A stretch of 64,000 bases of DNA. Origin: Rhodospirillales bacterium. Its GTDB lineage: Bacteria; Pseudomonadota; Alphaproteobacteria; Bin95. The stretch is from positions 384,001 through 448,000 of the forward strand of contig JAYQLI010000035.1 in assembly GCA_038143065.1 (NCBI GenBank). Direction: 5' to 3'. Shown one piece after another: positions 32,901 to 64,000 of this stretch. The stretch's first letter is position 1. Every line of letters starts with the position of its first letter. Under the pieces are notes generated by a model. It searched no databases, was not told the origin of the DNA, and worked only from the letters and a program-made list of their open reading frames with translations. The position numbers and the translations under genes were made by a program.

Positions 32901-34337
32901 CTAAATCAAGAAATATTTTTTCCCCAGTAGCATACGAACTATCCACCGAATTTTGGGGCTATAGATTTTGGGCTTGAAAAACTCATGTGCTGCGCTTTTA
33001 GAAATTTCTGACCGTGTTGGATACGCCGCAATGACCTGTGTAAATATTTTAATATTTTGTTTTTTTTCAATAGCCTGAACCCACGGCAAGATCAGTTCGC
33101 CGGCACTTTGGCCTACAATAGATGCGCCATAAATTCTGCCCTTTGAATTTGTTATTACCTTCAAAAATCCTTCAGTTCTGCCCTCAGCCACTGCTCGATC
33201 GTTATCGGAAAAGCCTACTTTAAGAATTCTAGAATTTTCCTTAAGAAATTCTTTAGCTTGTGTTTCGGACATGCCCACATGCGCTAATTCTGGGTCGGTA
33301 TAAGTGATTCGGGGCACAGATTCATAGTTTGTTTTAGAAGGAAGCAGAAATAGCGCATTTTTTGATGACTACCCCAGCATGATAACCTGCAACATGGGTG
33401 TATTGTGGTCCTCCTGAAGCATCTCCAACGACAAACACACGATTGTTTGTCTTACTACGCAATCGCCTATCTACCAGAATTGCGCCATTAGCAGTGGCAA
33501 CATGCGCTTGTTCTAGCTCAAGGTTTTCGAAGTTTGGACGTCGACCCGCTGCAACCAGGAGATGGCTTCCATGTAGTACTCGACCATCTTGCAGTTCTAC
33601 TGAAAAGGTTTTGTTGTTTCTGCTAATGAGAGAAATTTTTGCATCTGATAAGACTTCAACGCCTTCTGCCTTAAGGGCGTCTATTACTACCTTCGATACT
33701 TCGAGGTCCTCTTTTTAAGCGGCCTAGATGAGTCTAGAACAGTTACTTTAGAGCCTAGTCGGCGGAAAGCTTGAGATAGTTCCATACCAATTGGGCCGGC
33801 TCCAATAATCAGGAGATGCTCTGGCAATTCTTGGTTTTCAAAAATTGTTTCGTTGGTGAGGTAAGGAACTTCCGAAAGTCCCTTAATATGTGGAACTACA
33901 GGTCTAGACCCTGTTGCTATTACAAAGCGCTTGGCCTGTACTCTAATTCCAGCAGCATCGACAGTCTTGCGGTCCAGAAATTTTGCATGTCCTCGTACAA
34001 CTCTTACACCTAAACTCTCAAAACGCTCCTGACTATCATGCGGTGCTATCTGCGATATTACCTCGTTTACGTGCGCCATCACCGTGTCAAAACTAATTGC
34101 GGGCTCTACATTAGAAATACCAAACTTAGCCCCTGTTCGGAGAGTTTGTGCTTGTTTCGCTGCAGCTAGCAGTGCTTTTGAGGGGACGCAGCCAGTGTTT
34201 AGGCAATCGCCTCCCATTTTGCCCTGTTCTATTAGGGTTACAGATGCTCCCATCTGAGCAGCACCCGCGGCAATAGATAGCCCGGCAGAGCCACCGCCAA
34301 TTATGCAGAGGTCTGAATACCAGGTCCCATTTACCAT
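32901..34337 (-). CDS. Class I pyridine nucleotide-disulfide oxidoreductase (MerA/Lpd-like; two frameshifts)
   Basis: GGGSAG, GGDCLNTGCVPSKA, GAGPIG.E, PRITYTDPELA, YPTRSE; no C-terminal CC pair. Confidence 0.88.
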
Positions 34338-34426
34338 TGGCTATCTTTCCAAAGCATGCTGAACACGCTTAGGGTTCCCCAATAAAAAATATTAAATGTC
34401 CAATCTTAGAGCTACGACCTAATATT

Positions 34427-37304: not shown

Positions 37305-37794
37305 CTAAGGCATCCTGTGACGTTCGTTGTAGTCTTGTAGATAATCTAGATATCCCTGCAAGATAAATGCGGCAGCAGATGAGTCTATTACTTCCCCGCG
37401 CCGTTTTCTGCTCAAATCTGCTTCCAGTAATACGCGTCTCGCTGCATTTGTAGACATTCGCTCATCCCAAAACGCTAAGGGAAAGTCTCGGATTTTAGTC
37501 AGATTTCGCGCAAATGCTTTAGATGCTTGTGCCCTTGGGCCAGGCTTTCCGGACAGATCAAGTGGTAGTCCTATGATAAGGGCACCGACTTCAGCTTGAT
37601 CAAAAAAGTTCAAAGATCTGCGTGGCAAAGTCCTCAAATCCTTTGCCTCGTCTTAAAGTTTTTCTTGCGGTTGCAATGGTAAGGTTAGGATCCGAGATTG
37701 CTATACCAACAGTAGCGCTCCCAACATCCAAGCCGGCAATGCGTGATAATTGAGGAGTTGTCTCATATAGTTCATTAGGCTTGCAGATAGGCAT
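37305..37794 (-). CDS. ruvX: YqgF/RuvX RNase H-fold nuclease (frameshift near 37605)
   Basis: GLDVGSATVGIAISD, IGLPL, WDERMST, IDSSAAAFILQ; divergent from gatC as usual in Alphaproteobacteria. Confidence 0.92.
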
Positions 37795-37865
37795 ATGCGA
37801 TGCTAATCGCCCTGCGCCGAATGTGGCAAGAAAAGTATTAATTTTTAGGATGTGAGGGAGCTGAT

Positions 37866-38153
37866 TTGTCCCTAGATCGAGAAACAATAGTTCGCATAGC
37901 GAAATTGGCTCGTATTGATGTGGAAGACTCCGAGATAGACGGTCTTGCCAGTGAGCTAAATAATATCCTGGACTGGGTAGAGACTTTGAACTCCATATCA
38001 ACAGAAGGCGTAGAGCCAATGGTTGGCGTTGGTGTCAGTAAAGCACCTCTTCGGATGGACAATAACAATGATGGGGACATCGCAGAAGCTGTCCTCGCAA
38101 ATGCTCCAGATCCTACTCCTCCATATTTTACAGTGCCCAAAGTGATTGAATAG
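37866..38153 (+). CDS. gatC: Asp/Glu-tRNA amidotransferase subunit C
   Basis: [27 protein letters not shown]. Confidence 0.96.
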
Positions 38154-38155
38154 AA

Positions 38156-39644
38156 ATGTCAAAGTCAGAATTATTGCAGCTTGATATTGCGACTGCTGGT
38201 AAGGGACTTCGAGATGGAGACTTTACTGCTATCGAATTGACCGAGTCATATTTGGATGCCGTTGAGGCCAGTCGCGAACTCAATATCTTTATTACTGAAA
38301 CGCCTGACCGTGCCATGGCGGATGCAGTAGCTGCTGATAAGAGCATAAAGGCAGGTACATCCAGCAAAATGACTGGAATGCCGATTGGAATGAAGGACCT
38401 ATTTTGTACGGAAGATATCAAAACAACAGCCGCTTCAAATATTCTTGGGGAGTTCGTCCCACCATATGAGTCAACGATTTCAGCTCGATTAAAAGCTGCC
38501 GGTACAATCCTTTTGGGAAAGACCAATTTGGACGAGTTTGCGATGGGCTCATCCAATACAACTAGTGCCTTCGGCGCAGCATTTAATCCTTGGGAATTAA
38601 CGGAAGATAAAAAGCCTTTAACGCCAGGTGGTTCCTCTGGAGGCTCTGCTGCTGCTGTAGCTGCTGGAGCTGCCATCGCGGCTACTGGAACGGACACGGG
38701 TGGGTCAATTCGGCAGCCTGCGGCTTTCTGCGGAATTGTTGGAATGAAACCAACTTATGGTCGCTGCTCTCGGTGGGGGTTGTAGCTTTTGCATCCTCTC
38801 TTGATCAGGCTGGACCTTTCGCTCGAACCGTTCGCGATGCAGCTATTATGTTAGAGACAATGGCGGGGCATGATCCAAAGGACTCAACTTCAGCTGCGCA
38901 AGCAACGCCGAATTTTGAAGCGCTAATAGATGGGGGCGTTAAGGAATGCGCGTTGGTATTCCCAAGGAATACCGTGTTGAAGATATGCCAGAAGAAATAG
39001 ACAGTATCTGGCGGCGTGGTATCGATATGGTTACCGCTGCTGGCGCGGAGGTGGTTGAGGTCTCATTGCCGATGACGATGTCGGCTCTGCCGACATATTA
39101 CATTGTAGCTCCTGCTGAAGCATCTGCTAACTTAGCTAGGTACGATGGTGTTCGATACGGTGCACGCGTTGAAGGCGACGATCTAAATGGGATGTACAGC
39201 GCAACGCGAGGACAGGGTTTTGGTAAGGAAGTTCGACGTAGGATAATGATCGGTACCTACGTACTTTCTGCTGGGTATTACGATGCCTATTATAAAAAAG
39301 CGCAGCGCGTTCGTACTCTAATATCTCAGGACTTTGACAATGTATTTCATTCGGTTGATGCATTGCTAACACCAACCACACCTGGTGCAGCTTTTCCTAT
39401 CGGTGAAAAAGAGGACGATCCAATTTCAATGTACTTGAATGACGTCTTTACTGTACCAGCAAGTCTGGCCGGGTTGCCTGCTATATCAGTGCCAGTTGGG
39501 TCTAATGAAAACGGCTTGCCGTTGGGGCTTCAGATTATAGGGAGACCTTTCGATGAAGGAACCGTCTTTAGGCTCGGTCAGGCTTTAGAGGATGCAGCTC
39601 AATTTGATAAACGGCCACGTTTAACGGTGGAAGGCTTCAAATGA
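38156..39644 (+). CDS. gatA: Asp/Glu-tRNA amidotransferase subunit A (two frameshifts)
   Basis: [49 protein letters not shown]. Confidence 0.97.
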
Positions 39645-41234: not shown

Positions 41235-41326
41235 GGACAGGTGGGTGAGTGGCTGAAACCAGTGGATTGCTAATCCGCCGTACCTTTAATTGGGTACCGA
41301 GGGTTCGAATCCCTCCCTGTCCGCCA
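41235..41326 (+). tRNA. tRNA-Ser (anticodon GCT)
   Basis: GGACAGG/CCTGTCC acceptor stem, anticodon loop TTGCTAA, long variable arm GTACC..GGTAC, GGTTCGAATCC T-arm, discriminator G and encoded CCA. Confidence 0.96.
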
Positions 41327-41530
41327 CTCTTTCATTAGTTTTTCACTAATTCTCACGCTGCACTTTTAAAAATGCCGCGTACATCAATGCTTATTGCTGT
41401 TTTAATACAAGCTCTCAAGATAGAGTATACCTGTTTTTTAGCGATTTTGTATCCTAGGCTTTATCAACTTGTGGCGCCAGCGTTGTAAATCAAAGACAAT
41501 TATTCTACCCCGATCTATTAGGTTGCAGGA

Positions 41531-44500
41531 GTGACGCTGTTGTCTCTAACGACCCTTCAGGAAAAGTTCTTGTCTCGTGCGCTCGACGTGGAAGAAGATG
41601 CACTATCTGAACAAATTTTCGAGATAAGAGACTATCTTGAAAACGAGATTGTTGTTGTTGAGGGGACTTCCAACGACGAGGCATATGTGGTCGTTGAGGG
41701 CTCTGTGCGGGTTACCACATTTAATCACCAACAAAATCTATAGTCTTAGAATTAAAGGGAATTTCATCACTTGTTGGTGAAGAAGCTTGTTATTCATTTA
41801 ACAGCGCTCACAGAAACACGATTAAGGCAGCAGAAAAATTAAAAGTCGTCGTGATCCCAGGTTCCTTCATTAGAAAGTTATTTCGACAGAGAAGGAATTC
41901 TTCAAGTTTTATGTCTCAAGATGATCGTTCGGAGGCGCTTAGTAAGCTAAGTAACCAATCCTCAATTGGAAAGGATATTGCTGAACTTTTACAAAACGAA
42001 AGTGAGATCGAAACAAAATCCCTCAAACCAGGAGAAATTTTGTTCTCCGAAGGTGATAAGGCAGAGTTTTCTTGTTTGATTTTGGCTGGAAAAATAGAAG
42101 CACTAAAATGGGAAAAAAGTTCTCAAAAAATTGTTGGTAGTTCTGGTGTTGGGACCTTTGTAGGCGAGCTGGGTGTCCTGGAAAACGCACCCAGAGCGGC
42201 AACTGTACGCGCTATTGAGAACACCGACCTTTTGATAATACCTGCTGCAGTTGTTCGGAAAATTTGCACTGTATCAAAAGCACAAGCTCTGACTTCAGCT
42301 TTGAAGGCGGGTTATAATTTTTCAGGGCGAGGGACCACATTCAGTGTGGTCATTCCCGGAGAAACGGAAGACAGAGTTTCAACAACAATAAAGCTACCTG
42401 GCAATCGTCAGATAGCAATATCACGAACCCTTATGTCTGAGATGGTTGTCGCCCATGATGGGCAAGTTTCTGACAAAAAATTAATTTCTCATGATGGCAG
42501 ATATCGCATTGAGGTTCTTGATGGATTGCCAGTCCGTATTGAAGGGGCTCAAGACTGGCCTGATCTCCCAAAGCTTATGGATCGGATGCTTTCTGGAGAT
42601 GTTCTAGAGCCATGGCGATTGGTTGCATTTGAGGCACATGGAACGTTGATGTTTTCTGAAGAGGACGAAACATCAACCGATGCAGTAGTGTGTGCATGCA
42701 CGGGTGTCACCAAATCTGGAATTCGAAACCACGCACTTTCGGGCGTCACGACATTACAAGAAATTGGAGAAGCTTGCGGCGCTGGCAGTATTTGTGGCGG
42801 CTGTAGAAACAGGCTCTCGAATCTTTTAGGCCGTGAAAATTTTAATATGTGTCAGGCTAATGTTGAACCATTGAGTGAGGGTTCGGTTAAAGTAGTTCTT
42901 CGTTCAATACGTGACAAAATACATAAACCTCTTCCAGGACAACATGTATCCATTGATGGCCTTATCAAAGGCAATTGGGTTTCTAGGAGTTACACTGTCG
43001 TAGATGGCGACGAAAATCATATCGAGCTTGGCGTAAAGATTGAAGAACAGGGAACGTTTTCGCGCTGGCTATCAAAAACGGGTGATGGCTCACTGGTTAG
43101 GGTCTCTAACCCACAAGGTGAAGAAATTCCAAAGGCGGGGGAAGGGCTTCTATTTGTTGTTGCGGGGATAGGAGTTACGCCTGCTGTAGCTGCTCTAAGA
43201 AATCTAAGAAATCATAGAAACCTTCATATTTGTTACATTTTCCGTGGAGAAAAAACGGCCGCGTTTTTATCAGAACTAAAATTAGCAGAAGAAGAAGGAT
43301 TATCAGTCTCTCCCTTTGGGATTCTTCCATTCAAGGCCGTCCTGACCTCTCTGCTTTCGTTAATGCTGGAGTTGCTGACAGTAAAGCAAAAGAGGCAATA
43401 GTTTGTGGGCCTGTATCTTTTGCCGAGACAACGGCTGAGATATTAAGATCTGCGAACCTTAATGTTCGCACTGAGACTTTCACACACACTGGAATTGCAA
43501 ATGGGCCACCTCTCATTTGCCCTGGCTCTTGGCGCAATGAAACTAATCGAACCCCGCCTAAGGCGTGGAACCAGTACTCCATTGCTAAGCCAGGTTCTAA
43601 AAAAGATGAAGCAGAGGCATTTCTAAGGCAGTTTTTTTGTGAGAATGGGGTGGAAGCTGCCTTTGAAAGCAGGTGGAATGAGGTTCAGGAAGAGATCAAG
43701 GAAACTGGAACTTATTGGCAAAGCATTGAGGAATTAACCTTTTGGTGCAAAGCTTAGTTGGCGTAATGCCTCCCGCTGCATAGGCCGTCTCTATTGGTCA
43801 GGACTAAGAGTTAGGGACTTCCGGCATTTAACTCATCCGGATGATATGGCTCAAGAATTAATAAGACACCTTGAAATAGCTTATAATGATGGCGACCTCA
43901 GCCCTACAATGACCGTTTTCAATCCTGGCGCCCCTGGAGCGCCCGCGGTGAGAATTTGGAACCCTCAGCTAATGCGATATGCCGCATATCGCGATGAAAA
44001 TAACGAAATAATTGGAGACCCCGCTCAATTACATCTTACCAAAGAGATAGAAGCTCTTGGTTGGAACGGTCCAAAAACAAAGTTCGATATGCTGCCTATC
44101 GTAATTCATGTTAATGGACAAAAACCCCGTTATTATGAAATCCCAAATTATGAGCGTTATGAAATTGAGATCCGTCACCCGGAATATCCTGGGATTAATG
44201 AGCTTGGTCTAAAATGGTACGCGATCCCAGCGGTGTCTGATATGGCACTTGATTGTGGAGGAGTGCTTTATCAATGTGCCCCTTTTAATGGTTGGTACAT
44301 GGGGACCGAAATTGGTGCTCGGAATTTCACCGACGTAGAACGCTACAACCTTTCAGTAAAAATTGCTGAAAAAATGGGTCTTGAAACTAAACGTGAAAAT
44401 AATCTCTGGCGGGATAAGGCCTTAACAGCAATGACAGAGGCAGTGTTAGATAGCTTTGAGGCAAAAGGAATAAAAAATAACCGATCATCACTCTGCAGCG

Positions 44501-44686
44501 CTCGAGTTTCTTCAATTTTGTGAAAATGAGCAGGACCAGACCCGTGAAGTGTATGGAGATTGGACTTGGCTAGTTCCCCCAATTGGGGGGTCAGCAACAC
44601 CTCTGTTTTTAGATGGTTGGAAGCACGAAGAATTAAAACCCGCTCTCAGGATGCAGGAACCAGATTATCCATTGCCAGACCCCTAA
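41531..44686 (+). CDS. nos: Multidomain nitric oxide synthase: cNMP x2 - BFD [2Fe-2S] - FAD/NAD(P)H reductase - NOS oxygenase (four single-base frameshifts)
   Basis: GTG 41531 behind AGGA. Fragments 41531.., 41851.., 43230.., 43741/43846.. and ~44477..44686 give FVGELGVLENAPRAATVRA, C-X-C-X31-C-X2-C, RSYT, AGIGVTP, VCGP, ETGTY....[60 protein letters not shown]. Confidence 0.9.
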
Positions 44687-44897
44687 CCCTTGGAGTTGTT
44701 CTCAAAAAAACTTGAGCTACGTGGTTCGCGGCATTTATAGCGCTCCCGGCTTTGCTGGCCGAGGACTGTGGATACTTAGGTCTCTAAAGAGCATGCGTGA
44801 ATTAAATTCTATGCTAAACAAGAGTGATTATCGGTGGAACAAGAAAAAGCTTTTGCTTGAGAAATTTACCTCAGGAAAAACACCTTGGAGATATGAA

Positions 44898-45644
44898 ATG
44901 GCATTTTCACCTAGAAAAGTTTTGAAATTTATTGGTCTACCGTTGCTAATCTCCGGAGTTAGCTTTTCTTCAGCACAGGCAAAAAATGATGGTGGCTATG
45001 TCGCTTCAATTGAGGCTGGATACGCGTACACCAAGGTCGATGGAAAAGATCAAACCTTTCCTTTAGACGGCGAATTAAACGGCTTGGATATTGATATTGA
45101 AATTAGATCTTTTGAAAATGTGGTGTTGGAGTTTGGTTATCGAAGAGATGAAGGCGAGTTCACAAGAACTGACGGACTCAAGACTGACTATAAAAGAGAT
45201 ATATTCAATATAGATGCCGGGTATAATTTTGCTCCCAAAGAGGCAACTAACGAAATTATTCCATTCATAGGTCTTACCTTAATAGATGCAAAAAACAGAG
45301 TAACTGTTGGTGGTGTTAACATCTTATCTACCCAAAATGCTCAAAAAGGACACTTAGGCCTTAGAGTTGGAAAGCGATGGGAAAAGGCATATGCATCGAT
45401 TTCAGGTGGGTGGGAATTAACCATTGATGAAGATCAAGAGGTGCCAACCGTTGGAATATCTCAAAAGGGTGAGGTGGAGAATTCATTTTTTCTAAAGGCT
45501 AAGATGTCCTATCAACTTACTGATATGCTGAGTATCGGGATCAAGCCTGAGTTCAGATATGATGATTTTGATCAAAAAAATGGTGCACGAAATGTGACCC
45601 AGGAAGAATATTCAGTGACAGTATTTACTGGGCTAAATTTTTAA
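44898..45644 (+). CDS. Outer-membrane beta-barrel protein
   Basis: GGAG before ATG 44898, signal peptide ending SAQA, alternating amphipathic strands, C-terminal Phe (VFTGLNF). Confidence 0.75.
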   Translation: MAFSPRKVLKFIGLPLLISGVSFSSAQAKNDGGYVASIEAGYAYTKVDGKDQTFPLDGELNGLDIDIEIRSFENVVLEFGYRRDEGEFTRTDGLKTDYKRDIFNIDAGYNFAPKEATNEIIPFIGLTLIDAKNRVTVGGVNILSTQNAQKGHLGLRVGKRWEKAYASISGGWELTIDEDQEVPTVGISQKGEVENSFFLKAKMSYQLTDMLSIGIKPEFRYDDFDQKNGARNVTQEEYSVTVFTGLNF

Positions 45645-45850
45645 TCTTCTAAAAGAACGGTAGTATTACAACAGCAATGTTTTGTTGCTATGACGACCTC
45701 GCGGTGACCAATTTTTTCTGATTGAAATTGCGGCGTGGCTGATTAGTTGAATTTTCTATTGTGAGTCAGCACTGAACATATGTGTTGTCTGAGGAACAGT
45801 AACGCATGGTTGTTTTTAAATCCTCTATTGATCTCAAGATTATATTGGCG

Positions 45851-46415
45851 GTGGACAAGTTACTTAAATTGATTGTCTTGAGCGCTATGTGTCTGCTCCT
45901 TGTTAGCAATATAGCGTTAGCAGAAAGCAGACATAGCCACGCTTCTTCAAAGCATATGCACCATCATGATGAAGTTAATATGCCTGGGCTTCGCGGCGAA
46001 AATGCTTCGGCTGAAGAGACTTCTGATTTGGCTGTCCTATTTAGGAACTTTGAGACCTTAAGTCGTGAGGTGGGAGAATCTTCCAAATGGGATCAAAACT
46101 GTAACACGCTCCTCCAATTCGAAGGTTATGGAAGTACTTGTGCGACATGCTGTGGGTATGATTGGGCGCGTGGAACGGAAAGATGATCCAAAGATTTTTA
46201 TCCAAAGTCCAACGCTCAATGCATTTTTCTTACATGGTGACCAAATAGACTCTGAGATTGAAATAACAGATGAGGGATTAGTTATCGTTCAGACTTCAAA
46301 TAATCCTGCACTGGTCAAGGCGCTACAGGTTCATGCTGCTGAAGTCAGTGCAATGGCTGATCGAGGTATGGCTGCTGTTCACGAGATGATGATGAAACAG
46401 CAACGCGGTCATTAA
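45851..46415 (+). CDS. Secreted His/Met-rich hypothetical protein (frameshift near 46073)
   Basis: Signal peptide ending IALA, SRHSHASSKHMHHHDEVNMPG, C-terminal VHEMMMKQQRGH; ORFs 45806.. and 46065.. join at REV/ENLPNG. Confidence 0.7.
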
Positions 46416-46481
46416 AAGAATATATCGTTTTCTTCTAGATTAAGTTACTAATCGCAACATAACTAACTAAACAGATCGAAT

Positions 46482-47221
46482 TTAGTATTTTAACGCGTAG
46501 AAAATTCTTCCAGCCATCTCCCGTACGAAAAAACTAGTGTCTTTGAGTGCCTCTGCGGTAGGAATGAAGTCAATCACCGTTAGCTCCTCGTTTCTTGTCT
46601 AAAGTCGACCGCAAAGGGTTCTACGTTCAGCCCGGCAGCTTCGAAAACCTGCTTGGCGCGCGGCATGTGAAAGGCTGATGTGACAAGGATTATGGTGGGA
46701 TTGGATTTCACAAGAAGCCTTGCTGTTTGAAATGCCTCTTGTTCCGTATTTTCAACCTTTCCTGTTAATATAATTTTTTCTGCATCTACTCCTTGGTCCA
46801 TTGCGATTTTCTTCAGAAAGCTGCCTTCCGGTTCGCCTAATGACCAAGGAAGTTTTCCCTGGGTTAATACCAGCCTTGGAGATTTACCTTTCTTCACGAG
46901 TTCAATGCCCGCAAAGATCCTATCGGATGCATCCGTCCATTCGTAATGAAGGCCCTCTTTAGCGTTTATGGTTCTAACCATGCCACTCAATACAACAATA
47001 GCATCTGCATCTGGCATCAGATCAATTTTTTCTAATCGATAACCTCTTTCTAAAAAATGGATGAGATTATTTGAAACAAAGGGCATTGAGAGAGTAATTG
47101 TTATAATTAACGTAAATATAGATATCCTTTTTGAATTCAAAAAAACCCCTATTAACATTAACAATATAATAAAAAATATAGGACTTATGAAAAAGGGAAG
47201 AATCTTATTTAAATAAATCAT
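46482..47221 (-). CDS. YdcF/DUF218 (ElyC/SanA-like) envelope protein (frameshift near 46590)
   Basis: AIVVLSG, ENTEQEA, LVTSAFHMPRA; shifted C-terminus DFIPTAEAL....FVREMAG..FY ends at 46482. Confidence 0.88.
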
Positions 47222-47228
47222 AAAATAA

Positions 47229-47828
47229 TTAACTCATGCTTGAAATTATTTTCACGCCAGGGCTTTGGGGCCACGCTACCATCTTATCATTAGCCACCCT
47301 ATGTCGCCCTAGGATCAACCATGGATCATCAACCGAACCTATAAATTTATCGACGCGGAAATAACCAGGGTTAGTTTCTGCAATATCGAGAGTGGTCAGT
47401 CCACTGTCATATTTTGATTGCAGGAGTCCTTCAGCAACAAGCATTATTGAATTAACAAAAATATGTTCTGGCCAATCTGATAGATCTGTATAGGCACGAG
47501 TAGCTTTTTGAAGAGCGAGTGTTTGAGGTTTTTCGATGGAGGAACGGGTTAATATTGCGAGGTCTTTGCTGGATGAAATGAATGTGTCCATGACATGGAT
47601 GCCATAATCAAAATGGGCTTTCGCCACGACATCGGAACAGTCTGGGTGGACAGCAGCTTGAACCAAGTAATCAGCGCTTCCTTGAGCGATCATTTCTAGA
47701 CCTTTAAAAAAATCGGTAATTAGATCTAGCTGTCCGTTAATGCCGTGAAAATTCATAAATCGTTGGGTTATTAGTTCGTGGTTAGTGCCAGAAGGGCCTA
47801 GTGTTACAAATATCGGTTTGCGTACCAT
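47229..47828 (-). CDS. Hypothetical protein resembling the prephenate-dehydratase/PBP2 N-terminal fold
   Basis: FVTLGPSGTNHE resembles the PDT LGP.GT.S motif; no ACT domain or TRF motif seen. Confidence 0.55.
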   Translation of the reverse strand: MVRKPIFVTLGPSGTNHELITQRFMNFHGINGQLDLITDFFKGLEMIAQGSADYLVQAAVHPDCSDVVAKAHFDYGIHVMDTFISSSKDLAILTRSSIEKPQTLALQKATRAYTDLSDWPEHIFVNSIMLVAEGLLQSKYDSGLTTLDIAETNPGYFRVDKFIGSVDDPWLILGRHRVANDKMVAWPQSPGVKIISSMS

Positions 47829-47904
47829 TGATGTTCCCTTTCGATTCAAACCAATTTACATTTTGGTTAAGCTTTTTAAACAAAGGTGATTGGGGGACGG
47901 ACTA

Positions 47905-48706
47905 GTGCGACAAGCAGATTGGTATTTTGATTTCATTTCACCTTGTAGTAATGAAACCGCATCGGGAAGGACGGGTGGTTTTTAGTTGCGGTAGTGACGC
48001 TGAAGTATTTATTAAAATTGGCTTTTCGTATCACTTTCCTTGCATACCTGCAATTCCATCAGTTATCGCGTCTACCTGAAGATGTCGAAGTAAGACTTAA
48101 ACCAACACTGTTCGCCGGCCTGTTAAATTTTTGGGGGCAATTAGGTCCAGCTGAAATCCCGGAAAAAAAAGGCATACGTTCCAATTGTGTCGCTGGAGAG
48201 CTGCCAGGACGGGACTAAAGTTCAAGGCGCCCCCAAGACATCCTTTTAATCCTCTTGCTACTCTTCGTTTAGCTATCGCAACTGGAGCTACAATGAAGTC
48301 AGTTGGAATTATATTCGATTATCTATGGTCTGAGGGACAAGACGCTCAAGATCCAGATAGTCTGAGAATTTTGGCCGATCGTCTTGGCGTTCAAGATTTG
48401 AAAACAGCTACTGGTGACGAAGCAGTCAAAATGGCGCTGAGATCAAATACCGAAGAAGCGTGCGCTGCGGGTGTTTATGGTGTGCCAAGCTTTGTTATTG
48501 ATGGTGTCTCCTTTTGGGGCGATGACATGATGGAAATGATGTTGGAGTGGTTAGATGATCCAAATATTTTGGATGATCCTGAATCACACCGCATCGCAAA
48601 TTTGCCAGCAGCTGCAGTGAGGCCGCGTCGTGGAGTTTCAGGTAACTCAAAAAACCATGCGTCTCAAGCGGTTGAGGGCATGGAACTAAAATCGATTGGT
48701 TTGTGA
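47905..48706 (+). pseudogene. DsbA-family 2-hydroxychromene-2-carboxylate isomerase-like gene, interrupted by a 95-bp insertion and a frameshift near 48170
   Basis: GTG 47905 gives MRQADWYFDFISP; after the insert, FAYLQ...LFAGLL..WGQLGPAEIP; then HPFNPL and GVYGVPSFVIDG..FWG.D. Confidence 0.75.
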
Positions 48707-62588: not shown

Positions 62589-63041
62589 ATGCTGCGCTTA
62601 TCAAAAATGACCGATTATGCGGTTGTAGTTATGGGGCAATTAGCTTCCAGACCTGATTGCCGTCAGTCCGCTGCTAGTATAGCTGAAAATACTGGTTTAC
62701 CGACCGCTACAGTCGGGCAAGTACTTAAAGCTCTCAGCTTTTCAAACCTAGTTGATGGCACCCGCGGCGCATACGGTGGCTATTTATTGTCTCGCTCTCC
62801 TTCTGCCATTTCAGTTGCAGAGATTGTGGTGGCAATGGATGGGCCCGTTGCGATTACCGCTTGTGTGGATGGAGCGGACGACCCCTGCAATGTTCAGGCT
62901 GGATGTTTGCTTCGTGGTAGTTGGGATGCCGTGAATTCAGCAATTGAAGGTGCTCTGAAGGGTGTAACTCTTGAAGAAATGCTAGCTCCCTTATTTAGAT
63001 TTTCTGTATCCAAATCCTCTGAATTGGAGGTCCGCTCATGA
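62589..63041 (+). CDS. Rrf2-family SUF Fe-S assembly regulator (IscR-like)
   Basis: [21 protein letters not shown], three Cys (TAC..PC..GC); directly upstream of sufB. Confidence 0.92.
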
Positions 63042-64000
63042 GTGCTACAGCAGAAACTATTGCTGATGTCGAGAAGTTAGGCGATCGTTACAAATACGGC
63101 TTCGTTACTGAGATTGAATCAGAAACTGCTCCTAAGGGTCTGTCTGAGGACGTAATTCGTTTTATTTCGGCCAAGAAGGAAGAGCCGGCGTGGCTCCTGG
63201 AATGGCGGCTGCAAGCCTATGCAAAATGGCAAAAAATGAATGAGCCTAATTGGGCTAAATTGGGTTACCCTCCGATAGATTACCAAGACTCTTATTATTA
63301 CTCGGCACCAAAACAAAAAGATGCCCCCAAAAGCCTAGATGAGGTTGATCCAGAGTTACTAGAAACATACGAAAAACTTGGCATTCCACTAAAAGAACAG
63401 GAAATGCTGGCAGGGGTGAGAAACGTTGCCGTTGATGCAGTATTCGATAGTGTCTCGGTTGCTACTACCTTCAAAGCAAAATTAGCCGAAGCTGGTGTCA
63501 TTTTTTGTTCGATATCTGAAGCGGTTCGCGAATATCCAGACCTGGTCAAAAAGTACCTCGGCTCAGTAGTGCCGCAGGATGACAATTTTTTTGCCGCCTT
63601 GAATTGTGCAGTCTACACCGATGGCTCATTTGTATACGTACCCAAGGGTGTGAAATGTCCGATGGAACTCTCTACCTATTTTCGAATAAATCGCTGAAAA
63701 TACGGGGCAGTTTGAGCGCACATTAATTATAGCGGATGAGGGGTCTTACGTCAGTTACTTGGAAGGGTGTACAGCTCCGATGCGGGATGAAAATCAGCTG
63801 CACGCGGCTGTTGTTGAGCTTGTTGCGCACAAGGATGCGGAAATCAAATATTCGACTGTTCTTAATTGGTATGCGGGTGATGAAAATGGCAAAGGCGGGA
63901 TTTTCATTTTTGTGACGAAAAGAGCCCTCTGTCAGGGCGACCGTTCAAAGGTCATGTGGACCCAGGTGGAAACGGGTTCTGCAATTACATGGAAGTACCC
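63038..64000 (+). CDS. sufB: Fe-S cluster assembly protein SufB (frameshift near 63690; runs off the window)
   Basis: [27 protein letters not shown], then GQFERTLI and SYLEGCTAP in the shifted frame. Confidence 0.97.

Follow-up and report, generated by a model that had tools for sequence, protein, structure and literature searches.

As a rule, bacterial nitric oxide synthases (NOS) are regarded as oxygenase domains without regulation; the locus described here raises the question of what two cyclic-nucleotide-binding (CNB) domains, the first with an altered phosphate-binding cassette and the second with a canonical one, may be doing at the N-terminus of such an enzyme. The locus lies in a stretch of 64,000 nucleotides of DNA from a marine Rhodospirillales bacterium (assembly GCA_038143065.1, contig JAYQLI010000035.1, positions 384,001 to 448,000), which is referred to below as the window and to which all coordinates apply. 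The list of open reading frames (ORFs) and a three-frame translation established that a single gene of 1051 codons, the frame of which changes four times, is present on the forward strand (Table 1), and that it specifies, in N- to C-terminal order, CNB domain 1, CNB domain 2, a conserved middle domain, a BFD-type 2Fe-2S domain, an FNR-like reductase and a NOS oxygenase. As predicted from its sequence, the gene is a reductase-first (Sorangium-type) self-sufficient NOS. The explanation that we favour, and to which we would give slightly better than even chances, is that domain 2 senses cAMP, that domain 1 is a retained but non-canonical partner, and that the tandem gates the synthesis of nitric oxide (NO).

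Pfam analysis identified the module order of scNOS, that is, a BFD 2Fe-2S domain with four Cys residues followed by an FNR-like reductase and a NOS oxygenase in one chain. The three pieces into which the oxygenase is divided in the window matched PF02898 with E-values of 7.4e-7, 2.9e-103 and 2.7e-17, as compared to 3.5e-142 for the intact orthologue, which was taken from the same-genus genome G008, where the gene is syntenic, located downstream of gatB, uninterrupted and 1051 amino acids in length. NAD_binding_1 gave a weak match in this orthologue and a clear one in relatives, and the four Cys of the BFD domain and the heme-thiolate motif WRN..RCIGR were found to be invariant across 20 sequences.

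Domain 2 was recognized in the window's own translation by a match to PF00027 that is far beyond chance (E 1.3e-20, 73.6 bits against a cut-off of 27.5, profile positions 2-86 of 89), and the textbook cassette that a first-pass annotation had read in this domain, FVGELGVLENAPRAATVRA, is indeed located there. In yeast and apicomplexan regulatory subunits of protein kinase A (PKA-R), the cassette aligns residue for residue with the segment G-E-L-G-V-L-E-N-A-P-R-A-A-T-V-R-A (42163-42213), and judged by alignment domain 2 keeps every canonical ligand-contact position, namely the Gly-Glu at the start of the helix and then Pro-Arg-Ala-Ala-Thr. The pattern G-E...P-R-[AS]-A-T-V-R-A was kept in all 19 sequences examined from the alphaproteobacterial clade. 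Structure prediction of the N-terminus with AlphaFold2 (AF2; orthologue residues 1-385, 41-sequence alignment, mean predicted local distance difference test (pLDDT) 88.7, predicted template modelling score (pTM) 0.64) returned both CNB folds, and model residues 129-269 matched the CNB-B domain of cGMP-dependent protein kinase (PKG) II with a VIA Z of 16.0 and a root-mean-square deviation (rmsd) of 3.0 over 140 aligned residues. By both sequence and fold the closest solved relatives are the tandem CNB-A/B modules of PKA-R and PKG: the top sequence match among solved structures was 3of1 (E 8.9e-14), with some alignments spanning both domains, while the tandem matches returned by Foldseek had E-values of about 1e-16 over 260-285 columns, again across both domains. 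The earlier assignment of the N-terminus to the tandem cyclic nucleoside monophosphate (cNMP) domains of PKA-R/PKG type is thereby borne out among the best sequence and Foldseek matches.

Domain 1 of the window matched PF00027 below the cut-off (E 2.7e-4, 21.3 bits, profile positions 2-37 only, 41531-41740) because a frameshift cuts the domain; in the intact, 86%-identical orthologue (residues 1-140) the match was clear (E 1.5e-10, 41.4 bits, profile positions 2-88 of 89), and so, once the shift is allowed for, domain 1 does score as a cNMP fold. The AF2 model of the orthologue represents it as a beta roll of eight strands plus a cassette helix, the architecture of solved CNB domains, at a pLDDT of 82-97, and model residues 2-126 gave VIA Z values of 15.6 (3fx3, rmsd 2.9, 119 aligned), 14.4 (3ocp) and 13.1 (3dkw). 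The beta-roll peptide RDYLENEIVVVEGTSNDEAYVVVEGSVRV and the degenerate cassette LVGEEACYSFNSAHRNTIKA, which had been rebuilt over the first shift in the first-pass annotation, both proved to be as read there, the missing base being behind 41737. In its cassette, G83-E84-E-A-C-Y-S-F-N-S-A-H94-R95-N-T-I-K-A, the column of the phosphate-binding Arg is occupied by His94, and Arg95 follows one position later. Three lines of evidence agree on this placement, which had also been proposed before: counted back from the conserved Ile-Pro of beta-8, His94 stands opposite Arg222 of domain 2; relatives carry Arg in that column of the family alignment; and in the AF2 model beta-7 starts three residues past Arg222 in domain 2 and three residues past His94 in domain 1. 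The loop leading from the cassette helix to His94 is one residue longer than its counterpart in domain 2. Among G008 and P0001-P0004, the five members of the clade, the domain 1 cassette shows at most a single N/D exchange.

Cys87 (41785-41787), in the cassette helix of domain 1, stands fifth in the cassette (G-E-x-A-C); it was invariant in the nine-sequence alignment A1 and is frequent across the wider alphaproteobacterial clade, but not in the rest of the family. Any role for it as a redox- or NO-reactive site is purely speculative.

The sensor was next placed within its family. In a scan of one genome per species, relatives aligning over the full length (from query residues 3-31 to approximately residue 1045) were found in Sericytochromatia, Polyangia including a cultured Polyangium, Verrucomicrobiota, Planctomycetota and a gammaproteobacterial metagenome-assembled genome (MAG), and 13 of 13 such relatives carried two cNMP_binding stretches together with BFD, FNR and NOS. 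An exhaustive search without a profile gave 633 representatives at E-values up to 1e-30, and PF00027 was present in 117 of the best 120 clusters from a word-indexed search with the reductase-oxygenase part. Some of these clusters bear the database name 'NOS oxygenase / ferredoxin-NADP reductase / CRP-like cAMP-binding protein', and the architecture is therefore already known to databases. Among the 36 reductase-first relatives of which the N-terminus was scanned, 22 carried cNMP_binding, seven carried EF-hands and seven had no Pfam domain, a split which indicates that the N-terminus behaves as an exchangeable sensor module. Pairs of EF-hands replace the CNB tandem in P0026, P0028, P0032, P0037, P0045, P0056 and P0151; the seven relatives devoid of an N-terminal Pfam domain have an N-terminus of similar length, and both groups align with the query from approximately residue 326 onward. 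One further protein, P0101 (660 amino acids), carries two CNB domains and BFD, aligns to query residues 34-631 and lacks the oxygenase, and is either a stand-alone sensor-reductase or the product of a truncated contig.

To follow the two sites separately, each domain was scored for Gly, Glu/Asp and Arg at three cassette columns, a crude criterion, as some of the domains that pass it have unusual residues after the Arg. In a first census of 42 sequences the motif was present in both domains of 23, in domain 1 only of ten and in domain 2 only of nine, and none lacked both; in a larger census of 115 full-length clusters, from which six listed proteins of fewer than 1000 amino acids were left out, the corresponding numbers were 34, 43, 34 and four. 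The statement that no member is without the motif in both domains, which the smaller census had suggested, was thus overturned by the larger one. In a tree built from the C-terminal 690 residues, from which the CNB columns were excluded, the three states change at least ten times among 40 rows. The clade of the window (G008, P0001, P0003 and P0004; support 100) is nested in an eight-row alphaproteobacterial clade, the other four rows of which (the sister clade P0005-P0008) keep Arg at the domain 1 column, and His94 is therefore a derived change on one stem. Across the wider alphaproteobacterial clade domain 2 passed in all 19 sequences and domain 1 in ten, and in some lineages not even the Gly-Glu of domain 1 remains. 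Verrucomicrobiota and Planctomycetota often have domain 2 as the degenerate one, or else Ala in place of the domain 1 Arg. Read from these alignments, the degenerate domain 1 is not a feature of the family but arose within the small clade to which the window belongs, and across the family the motif of either site has been lost repeatedly. It is against this family-wide loss that the asymmetry gains interest.

The ratio of nonsynonymous to synonymous substitution (dN/dS) between the window and G008 was 0.12 for domain 1 (core 0.08) and 0.13 for domain 2 (core 0.10), as compared to 0.27 for the middle domain, 0.17 for BFD plus FNR, 0.12 for the oxygenase and 0.15 for the whole gene. On these values domain 1 does not appear to be decaying, and purifying selection on it would be as strong as that on domain 2. 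The suggestion of the first-pass annotation that domain 1 is structural holds in so far as a retained, non-canonical partner fits the data, and fails in so far as it would imply decay, given 0.12 versus 0.13.

With regard to the ligand, an inventory of nucleotide cyclases in the source genome yielded six PF00211 hits, five of which are full class III cyclase domains, and no class I adenylate cyclase was found in this genome. Adenylyl cyclases of class III are distinguished by Lys, and guanylyl cyclases by Glu, at the first specificity position; each of the five full domains carries this Lys, within D-K-[FY]-[IM]-G-D, has Ser/Thr three residues before G-D-x-V-N, and looks adenylyl-type. One of the five, L094 (G000:C35:2573448-2573963), contains an in-frame TGA and a garbled stretch, which is probably another assembly indel. 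It was also proposed earlier that R-A-A goes with a preference for cAMP and R-T-A with one for cGMP. This rule fits the title of PDB entry 5kjz, an A336T mutant of the CNB-B domain of PKA RI-alpha crystallised with cGMP, yet it is a weak predictor outside PKA and PKG and was given little weight here because the residue after the Arg varies freely in the NOS family (A, S, T, Q or L). By sequence cAMP is the likelier ligand of domain 2, mainly because cAMP is what the cell appears to make.

Taken in sequence, the steps of the favoured explanation would be as follows. The first ~260 residues form a PKA-R-like tandem of CNB domains in which domain 2 would be the working sensor, most likely for cAMP, while domain 1, with His94 and its longer loop, probably does not bind cyclic nucleotides in the canonical manner and may be kept as a partner that relays or shapes the conformational change, like the non-binding or low-affinity CNB domains of other tandem arrays. 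Ligand at domain 2 would move the helices after the beta roll, and this movement, passed on via the middle domain, would alter the delivery of electrons from the 2Fe-2S/FNR part to the haem, thereby tying NO synthesis to the cAMP level of the cell. Tandem CNB modules are established transmitters of control in PKA, PKG and Epac, and it is this mode of action, together with the domain order and the interchangeability with EF-hands, that leads us to propose that the tandem controls electron delivery. The analysis itself establishes the integrity of the gene, the order of its domains, the two CNB folds, the state of each cassette, the purifying selection acting on both and the presence of adenylyl-type cyclases in the genome. 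The identity of the ligand, the non-binding of domain 1 and the effect on catalysis, including its direction, are what we infer. The middle domain, which is beta-rich, well conserved and confidently modelled (AF2 pLDDT 90-96), and which from approximately residue 326 onward is common to the EF-hand-type relatives, had no Pfam match at E-values up to 1; there was no usable protein-atlas match for its fold, and the VIA search, being filled by CNB matches, barely probed that part, so that these results do not argue for a new fold.

If the tandem does gate electron flow, it would represent the first second-messenger switch on a bacterial NOS, and the NO output of marine and freshwater bacteria would be coupled directly to cAMP signalling. 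Natural variants exist with site 1 only (for example in Planctomycetota), site 2 only (as here) or both (for example in Sericytochromatia or Polyangium), and comparison among them, along with mutagenesis, offers a way to read the role of each site. A bolder version, which we regard as possible though on balance doubtful, is that the animal pathway from NO to cGMP is reversed in these bacteria: cAMP would gate a NO synthase via a fused sensor, lineages would disable either site or swap in EF-hands, and the altered domain 1 (His94/Arg95 and Cys87) would be a non-cNMP input or a feedback site.

A number of points weigh against the favoured explanation. Domain 1 keeps Gly83-Glu84 of the cassette and has Arg95 adjoining His94, so that the shifted Arg95 or a protonated His94 might still hold the phosphate. 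The modelled inter-domain orientation does not superpose on PKA-R/PKG (template modelling score (TM) 0.25-0.44, rmsd 12-19 Å) and the tandem module is flexible; fold and tandem arrangement are, according to the model, shared with these kinase regulators, and the modelled orientation is not. A full-length AF2 model from nine sequences was too poor for contacts with the reductase to be read (pLDDT 64, pTM 0.42, oxygenase badly modelled), and all dN/dS values derive from the single pair of window and G008. Four of the 115 clusters fail strict G-[ED]...R in both domains, all four having kept Arg and lacking Glu, so that a canonical cassette is no strict requirement of the family. No cyclase, phosphodiesterase or recurring family was found beside the NOS gene among the two nearest ORFs on each side (12 loci, 41 proteins). 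Finally, a literature search, which did not cover the original scNOS report (Agapie et al. 2009), found no paper linking a CNB domain to bacterial NOS. The reductase-first NOS with a CNB sensor is thus listed in databases and unstudied in the literature found, and the asymmetry of its two sites is a clade-level detail.

The first of these points is the core of the alternative that survives best, albeit as an unlikely one, namely that both domains bind a cyclic nucleotide, with Arg95 (or His94) taking the phosphate in the longer loop to give a cooperative two-site sensor like that of PKA-R. The retained Gly83-Glu84 with an Arg just one position off would be explained in this way, as would the strong purifying selection on domain 1 and the identity of its cassette in five clade members that are 82-97% identical overall, and the Arg of domain 1 pairs in alignment with that of a Plasmodium PKG domain. 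However, the latter is the degenerate third CNB domain of that kinase, which is not known to bind a cyclic nucleotide, and both alignment and model put His in the canonical column and Asn in place of the small residue that usually follows. Moreover, nine of the 19 alphaproteobacterial sequences fail the domain 1 motif, some of them lacking Gly-Glu, while domain 2 never varies, from which it can be argued that site 1 is dispensable for ligand binding in that clade.

It is less probable again that domain 1 has been retuned to another small ligand, for instance a nucleoside or another nucleotide, and that the enzyme integrates two signals. There are parallels for such a change, in that trypanosome PKA-R with altered cassettes is cAMP-independent and was crystallised with inosine or guanosine, according to PDB titles, and in that the CRP-family folds of CooA (haem) and NtcA (2-oxoglutarate) match the model with Z values of 13-14; purifying selection on an altered cassette would also fit a new function. 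The sequence points to no particular ligand, however, the change is limited to one small clade, and a purely structural role fits the same data. We consider it slightly more improbable still that neither domain senses a nucleotide in vivo and that the tandem is a dimerisation or scaffolding module for the reductase. The four clusters that fail the strict motif in both domains and the absence of a linked cyclase gene from the 12 loci would be in keeping with this, whereas a domain 2 cassette that is PKA-type residue for residue and invariant in the clade, the retention of the motif in at least one domain of 111 of the 115 clusters, and the EF-hand Ca2+ sensors that take the same position in other members and point to signalling all argue against it. 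That the gene is a decaying pseudogene, of which the odd domain 1 cassette would be part, is suggested by the four frameshifts in the window sequence and is very improbable, as all four indels are missing from independent contigs of three studies, the whole-gene dN/dS is 0.15, no in-frame stops remain once the indels are allowed for, intact orthologues carry the same cassette, and essential genes of the window are frameshifted too.

Alignment of the window with the G008 orthologue revealed exactly four single-base indels, two bases being missing and two extra, the extra ones both in homopolymers; the DNA evidence on each, given in Table 1, comes from contigs of three metagenome runs from three different studies. 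In addition, P0003, an intact protein of 1051 amino acids from an independent assembly, shares 97% and 94% identity with the two window pieces spanning the sensor. When 77 long open frames over the whole window were scanned with Pfam, many unrelated genes proved to be likewise split, among them gatA, ruvX, lpdA (dihydrolipoamide-dehydrogenase-type), sufB and those for a MatE transporter, a DNA ligase and a GMC oxidoreductase. Because independent contigs lack all four frameshifts and because many other genes of the window are split, the frameshifts are, by sequence comparison, assembly errors, and the NOS gene is whole in nature. It should not be annotated as a pseudogene, the frameshifts of the source assembly being artefacts, and in view of the high indel rate of the assembly any 'pseudogene' call in the source genome needs independent reads.

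Table 1. Features of the NOS gene, assembly indels within it and other split genes in the window
Feature	Position	Strand	Remarks
Whole NOS gene	41531-44686	+	3156 nt, same length as the intact 1051-aa G008 orthologue; 87% nucleotide identity
CNB domain 1 (residues 33-120)	41627-41889	+	Split by the indel behind 41737
Domain 1 beta-roll peptide RDYLENEIVVVEGTSNDEAYVVVEGSVRV	41627-41713	+	Frame of the 41531 ORF
Degenerate phosphate-binding cassette, domain 1, LVGEEACYSFNSAHRNTIKA	41770-41829	+	One frame over from the 41531 ORF
His94 codon	41809-41811	+	Domain 1 cassette
Arg95 codon	41812-41814	+	Domain 1 cassette
CNB domain 2	42016-42267	+	PF00027 in the window's own frame
Canonical phosphate-binding cassette, domain 2, FVGELGVLENAPRAATVRA	42157-42213	+	Frame with start mod 3 = 1
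Arg222 codon	42193-42195	+	Domain 2 cassette
Middle domain (residues ~265-385)	42322-42684	+	Seven beta strands, then helices
BFD-like [2Fe-2S] domain	42685-42828	+	PF04324, E 1.5e-9
FNR-like FAD/NAD(P) reductase	42829-43604	+	PF00970, E 3.5e-8; holds the second indel (43296-43299)
NOS oxygenase	43605-44665	+	PF02898; three frames, cut by indels at 43740 and 44472
Assembly indel 1	41737-41738	+	One base missing, C-T versus CCC in the orthologue; extra C in 3/3 DNA runs
Assembly indel 2	43296-43299 (near 43298)	+	One base missing; extra G in 3/3 DNA runs
Assembly indel 3	43740	+	One surplus T in a T run; base omitted in 3/3 DNA runs and the RNA run
Assembly indel 4	44472	+	One surplus A in an A run; base omitted in 3/3 DNA runs and the RNA run
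gatA	38150-39641		Three pieces
ruvX	37308-38034		Split
Dihydrolipoamide-dehydrogenase-type gene	32904-34340		Three pieces
sufB	63023-63998		Split

The surroundings of the gene provided further observations. A tRNA-Ser(GCT) gene (41235-41326) is located directly upstream, a NOS orthologue was found in only one of nine further genomes of the genus (three of these 87-90% complete), and the GC content falls to 0.41 in 44001-48000; the NOS locus may have been inserted at the tRNA as an accessory region. The ORFs just downstream (44712-45644 and 45806-46415; 310, 126 and 116 amino acids) had no Pfam match at E-values up to 1e-5. The NO sensor H-NOX (PF07700) was not found in the genome, which is 97.6% complete and indel-rich, so that this is no proof of absence. 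Metagenome runs from several studies, of marine, estuary and seawater origin, contain DNA near-identical to 41400-44800, and seawater metatranscriptome contigs cover parts of the NOS gene, one piece being only ~91% identical; as such contigs are no proof of transcription, no claim on expression is made from them.

Among known systems the nearest are scNOS of Sorangium cellulosum and SiliNOS of Silicibacter sp. TrichCH4B, which in the accessible sections of the published descriptions consist of a 2Fe-2S/FAD/NAD(P) reductase followed by an oxygenase (PMC4436077, PMC3701330, PMC9500659), NADPH-driven NO formation without a separate reductase being reported in these sections for scNOS only (PMC4436077). 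Full-length SiliNOS is reported not to have been obtained in active form (PMC4436077). The window gene resembles both, as far as they are described there, in specifying one polypeptide with an N-terminal 2Fe-2S and FAD/NAD(P) reductase and a C-terminal NOS oxygenase, the same three Pfam modules being present. It differs from them by that description in its ~260 N-terminal residues that form two CNB domains, as 'cyclic nucleotide', 'cNMP' and 'cAMP' have no occurrences in the accessible text on scNOS (PMC4436077). Full-length relatives over residues 31-1041/1045 were found in Polyangium and in a Polyangiaceae MAG, and the Polyangium relative carries CNB domains.

The likeness to PKA-R and PKG lies in two consecutive CNB domains and in the domain 2 cassette, P-R-A-A-T-V as in the PKA type. 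In contrast to these regulators, the NOS of the window has no kinase partner, inhibitor segment or docking domain, its output being a fused redox enzyme, its domain 1 lacks the Arg, and the orientation modelled for its tandem differs, as the TM values given above indicate. In the cAMP-independent PKA-R of trypanosomes and the third CNB domain of Plasmodium PKG, as in domain 1 here, the CNB fold is kept in an array with a cassette devoid of the canonical phosphate contacts; those arrays, however, are eukaryotic kinase regulators, whereas here it is a bacterial NOS that has His in place of Arg and the Arg one position further on. Ca2+-regulated NOS are also known, in the mammalian enzymes with calmodulin and in syNOS of Synechococcus with a C2 domain (PMC12922734). 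These share with the window gene the placing of NO synthesis under a second-messenger sensor that is in the enzyme or docked on it, and EF-hand versions exist within the reductase-first family itself; the difference is that the messenger of the window enzyme would be a cyclic nucleotide, and that its reductase is of the 2Fe-2S/FNR type and on the N-terminal side.

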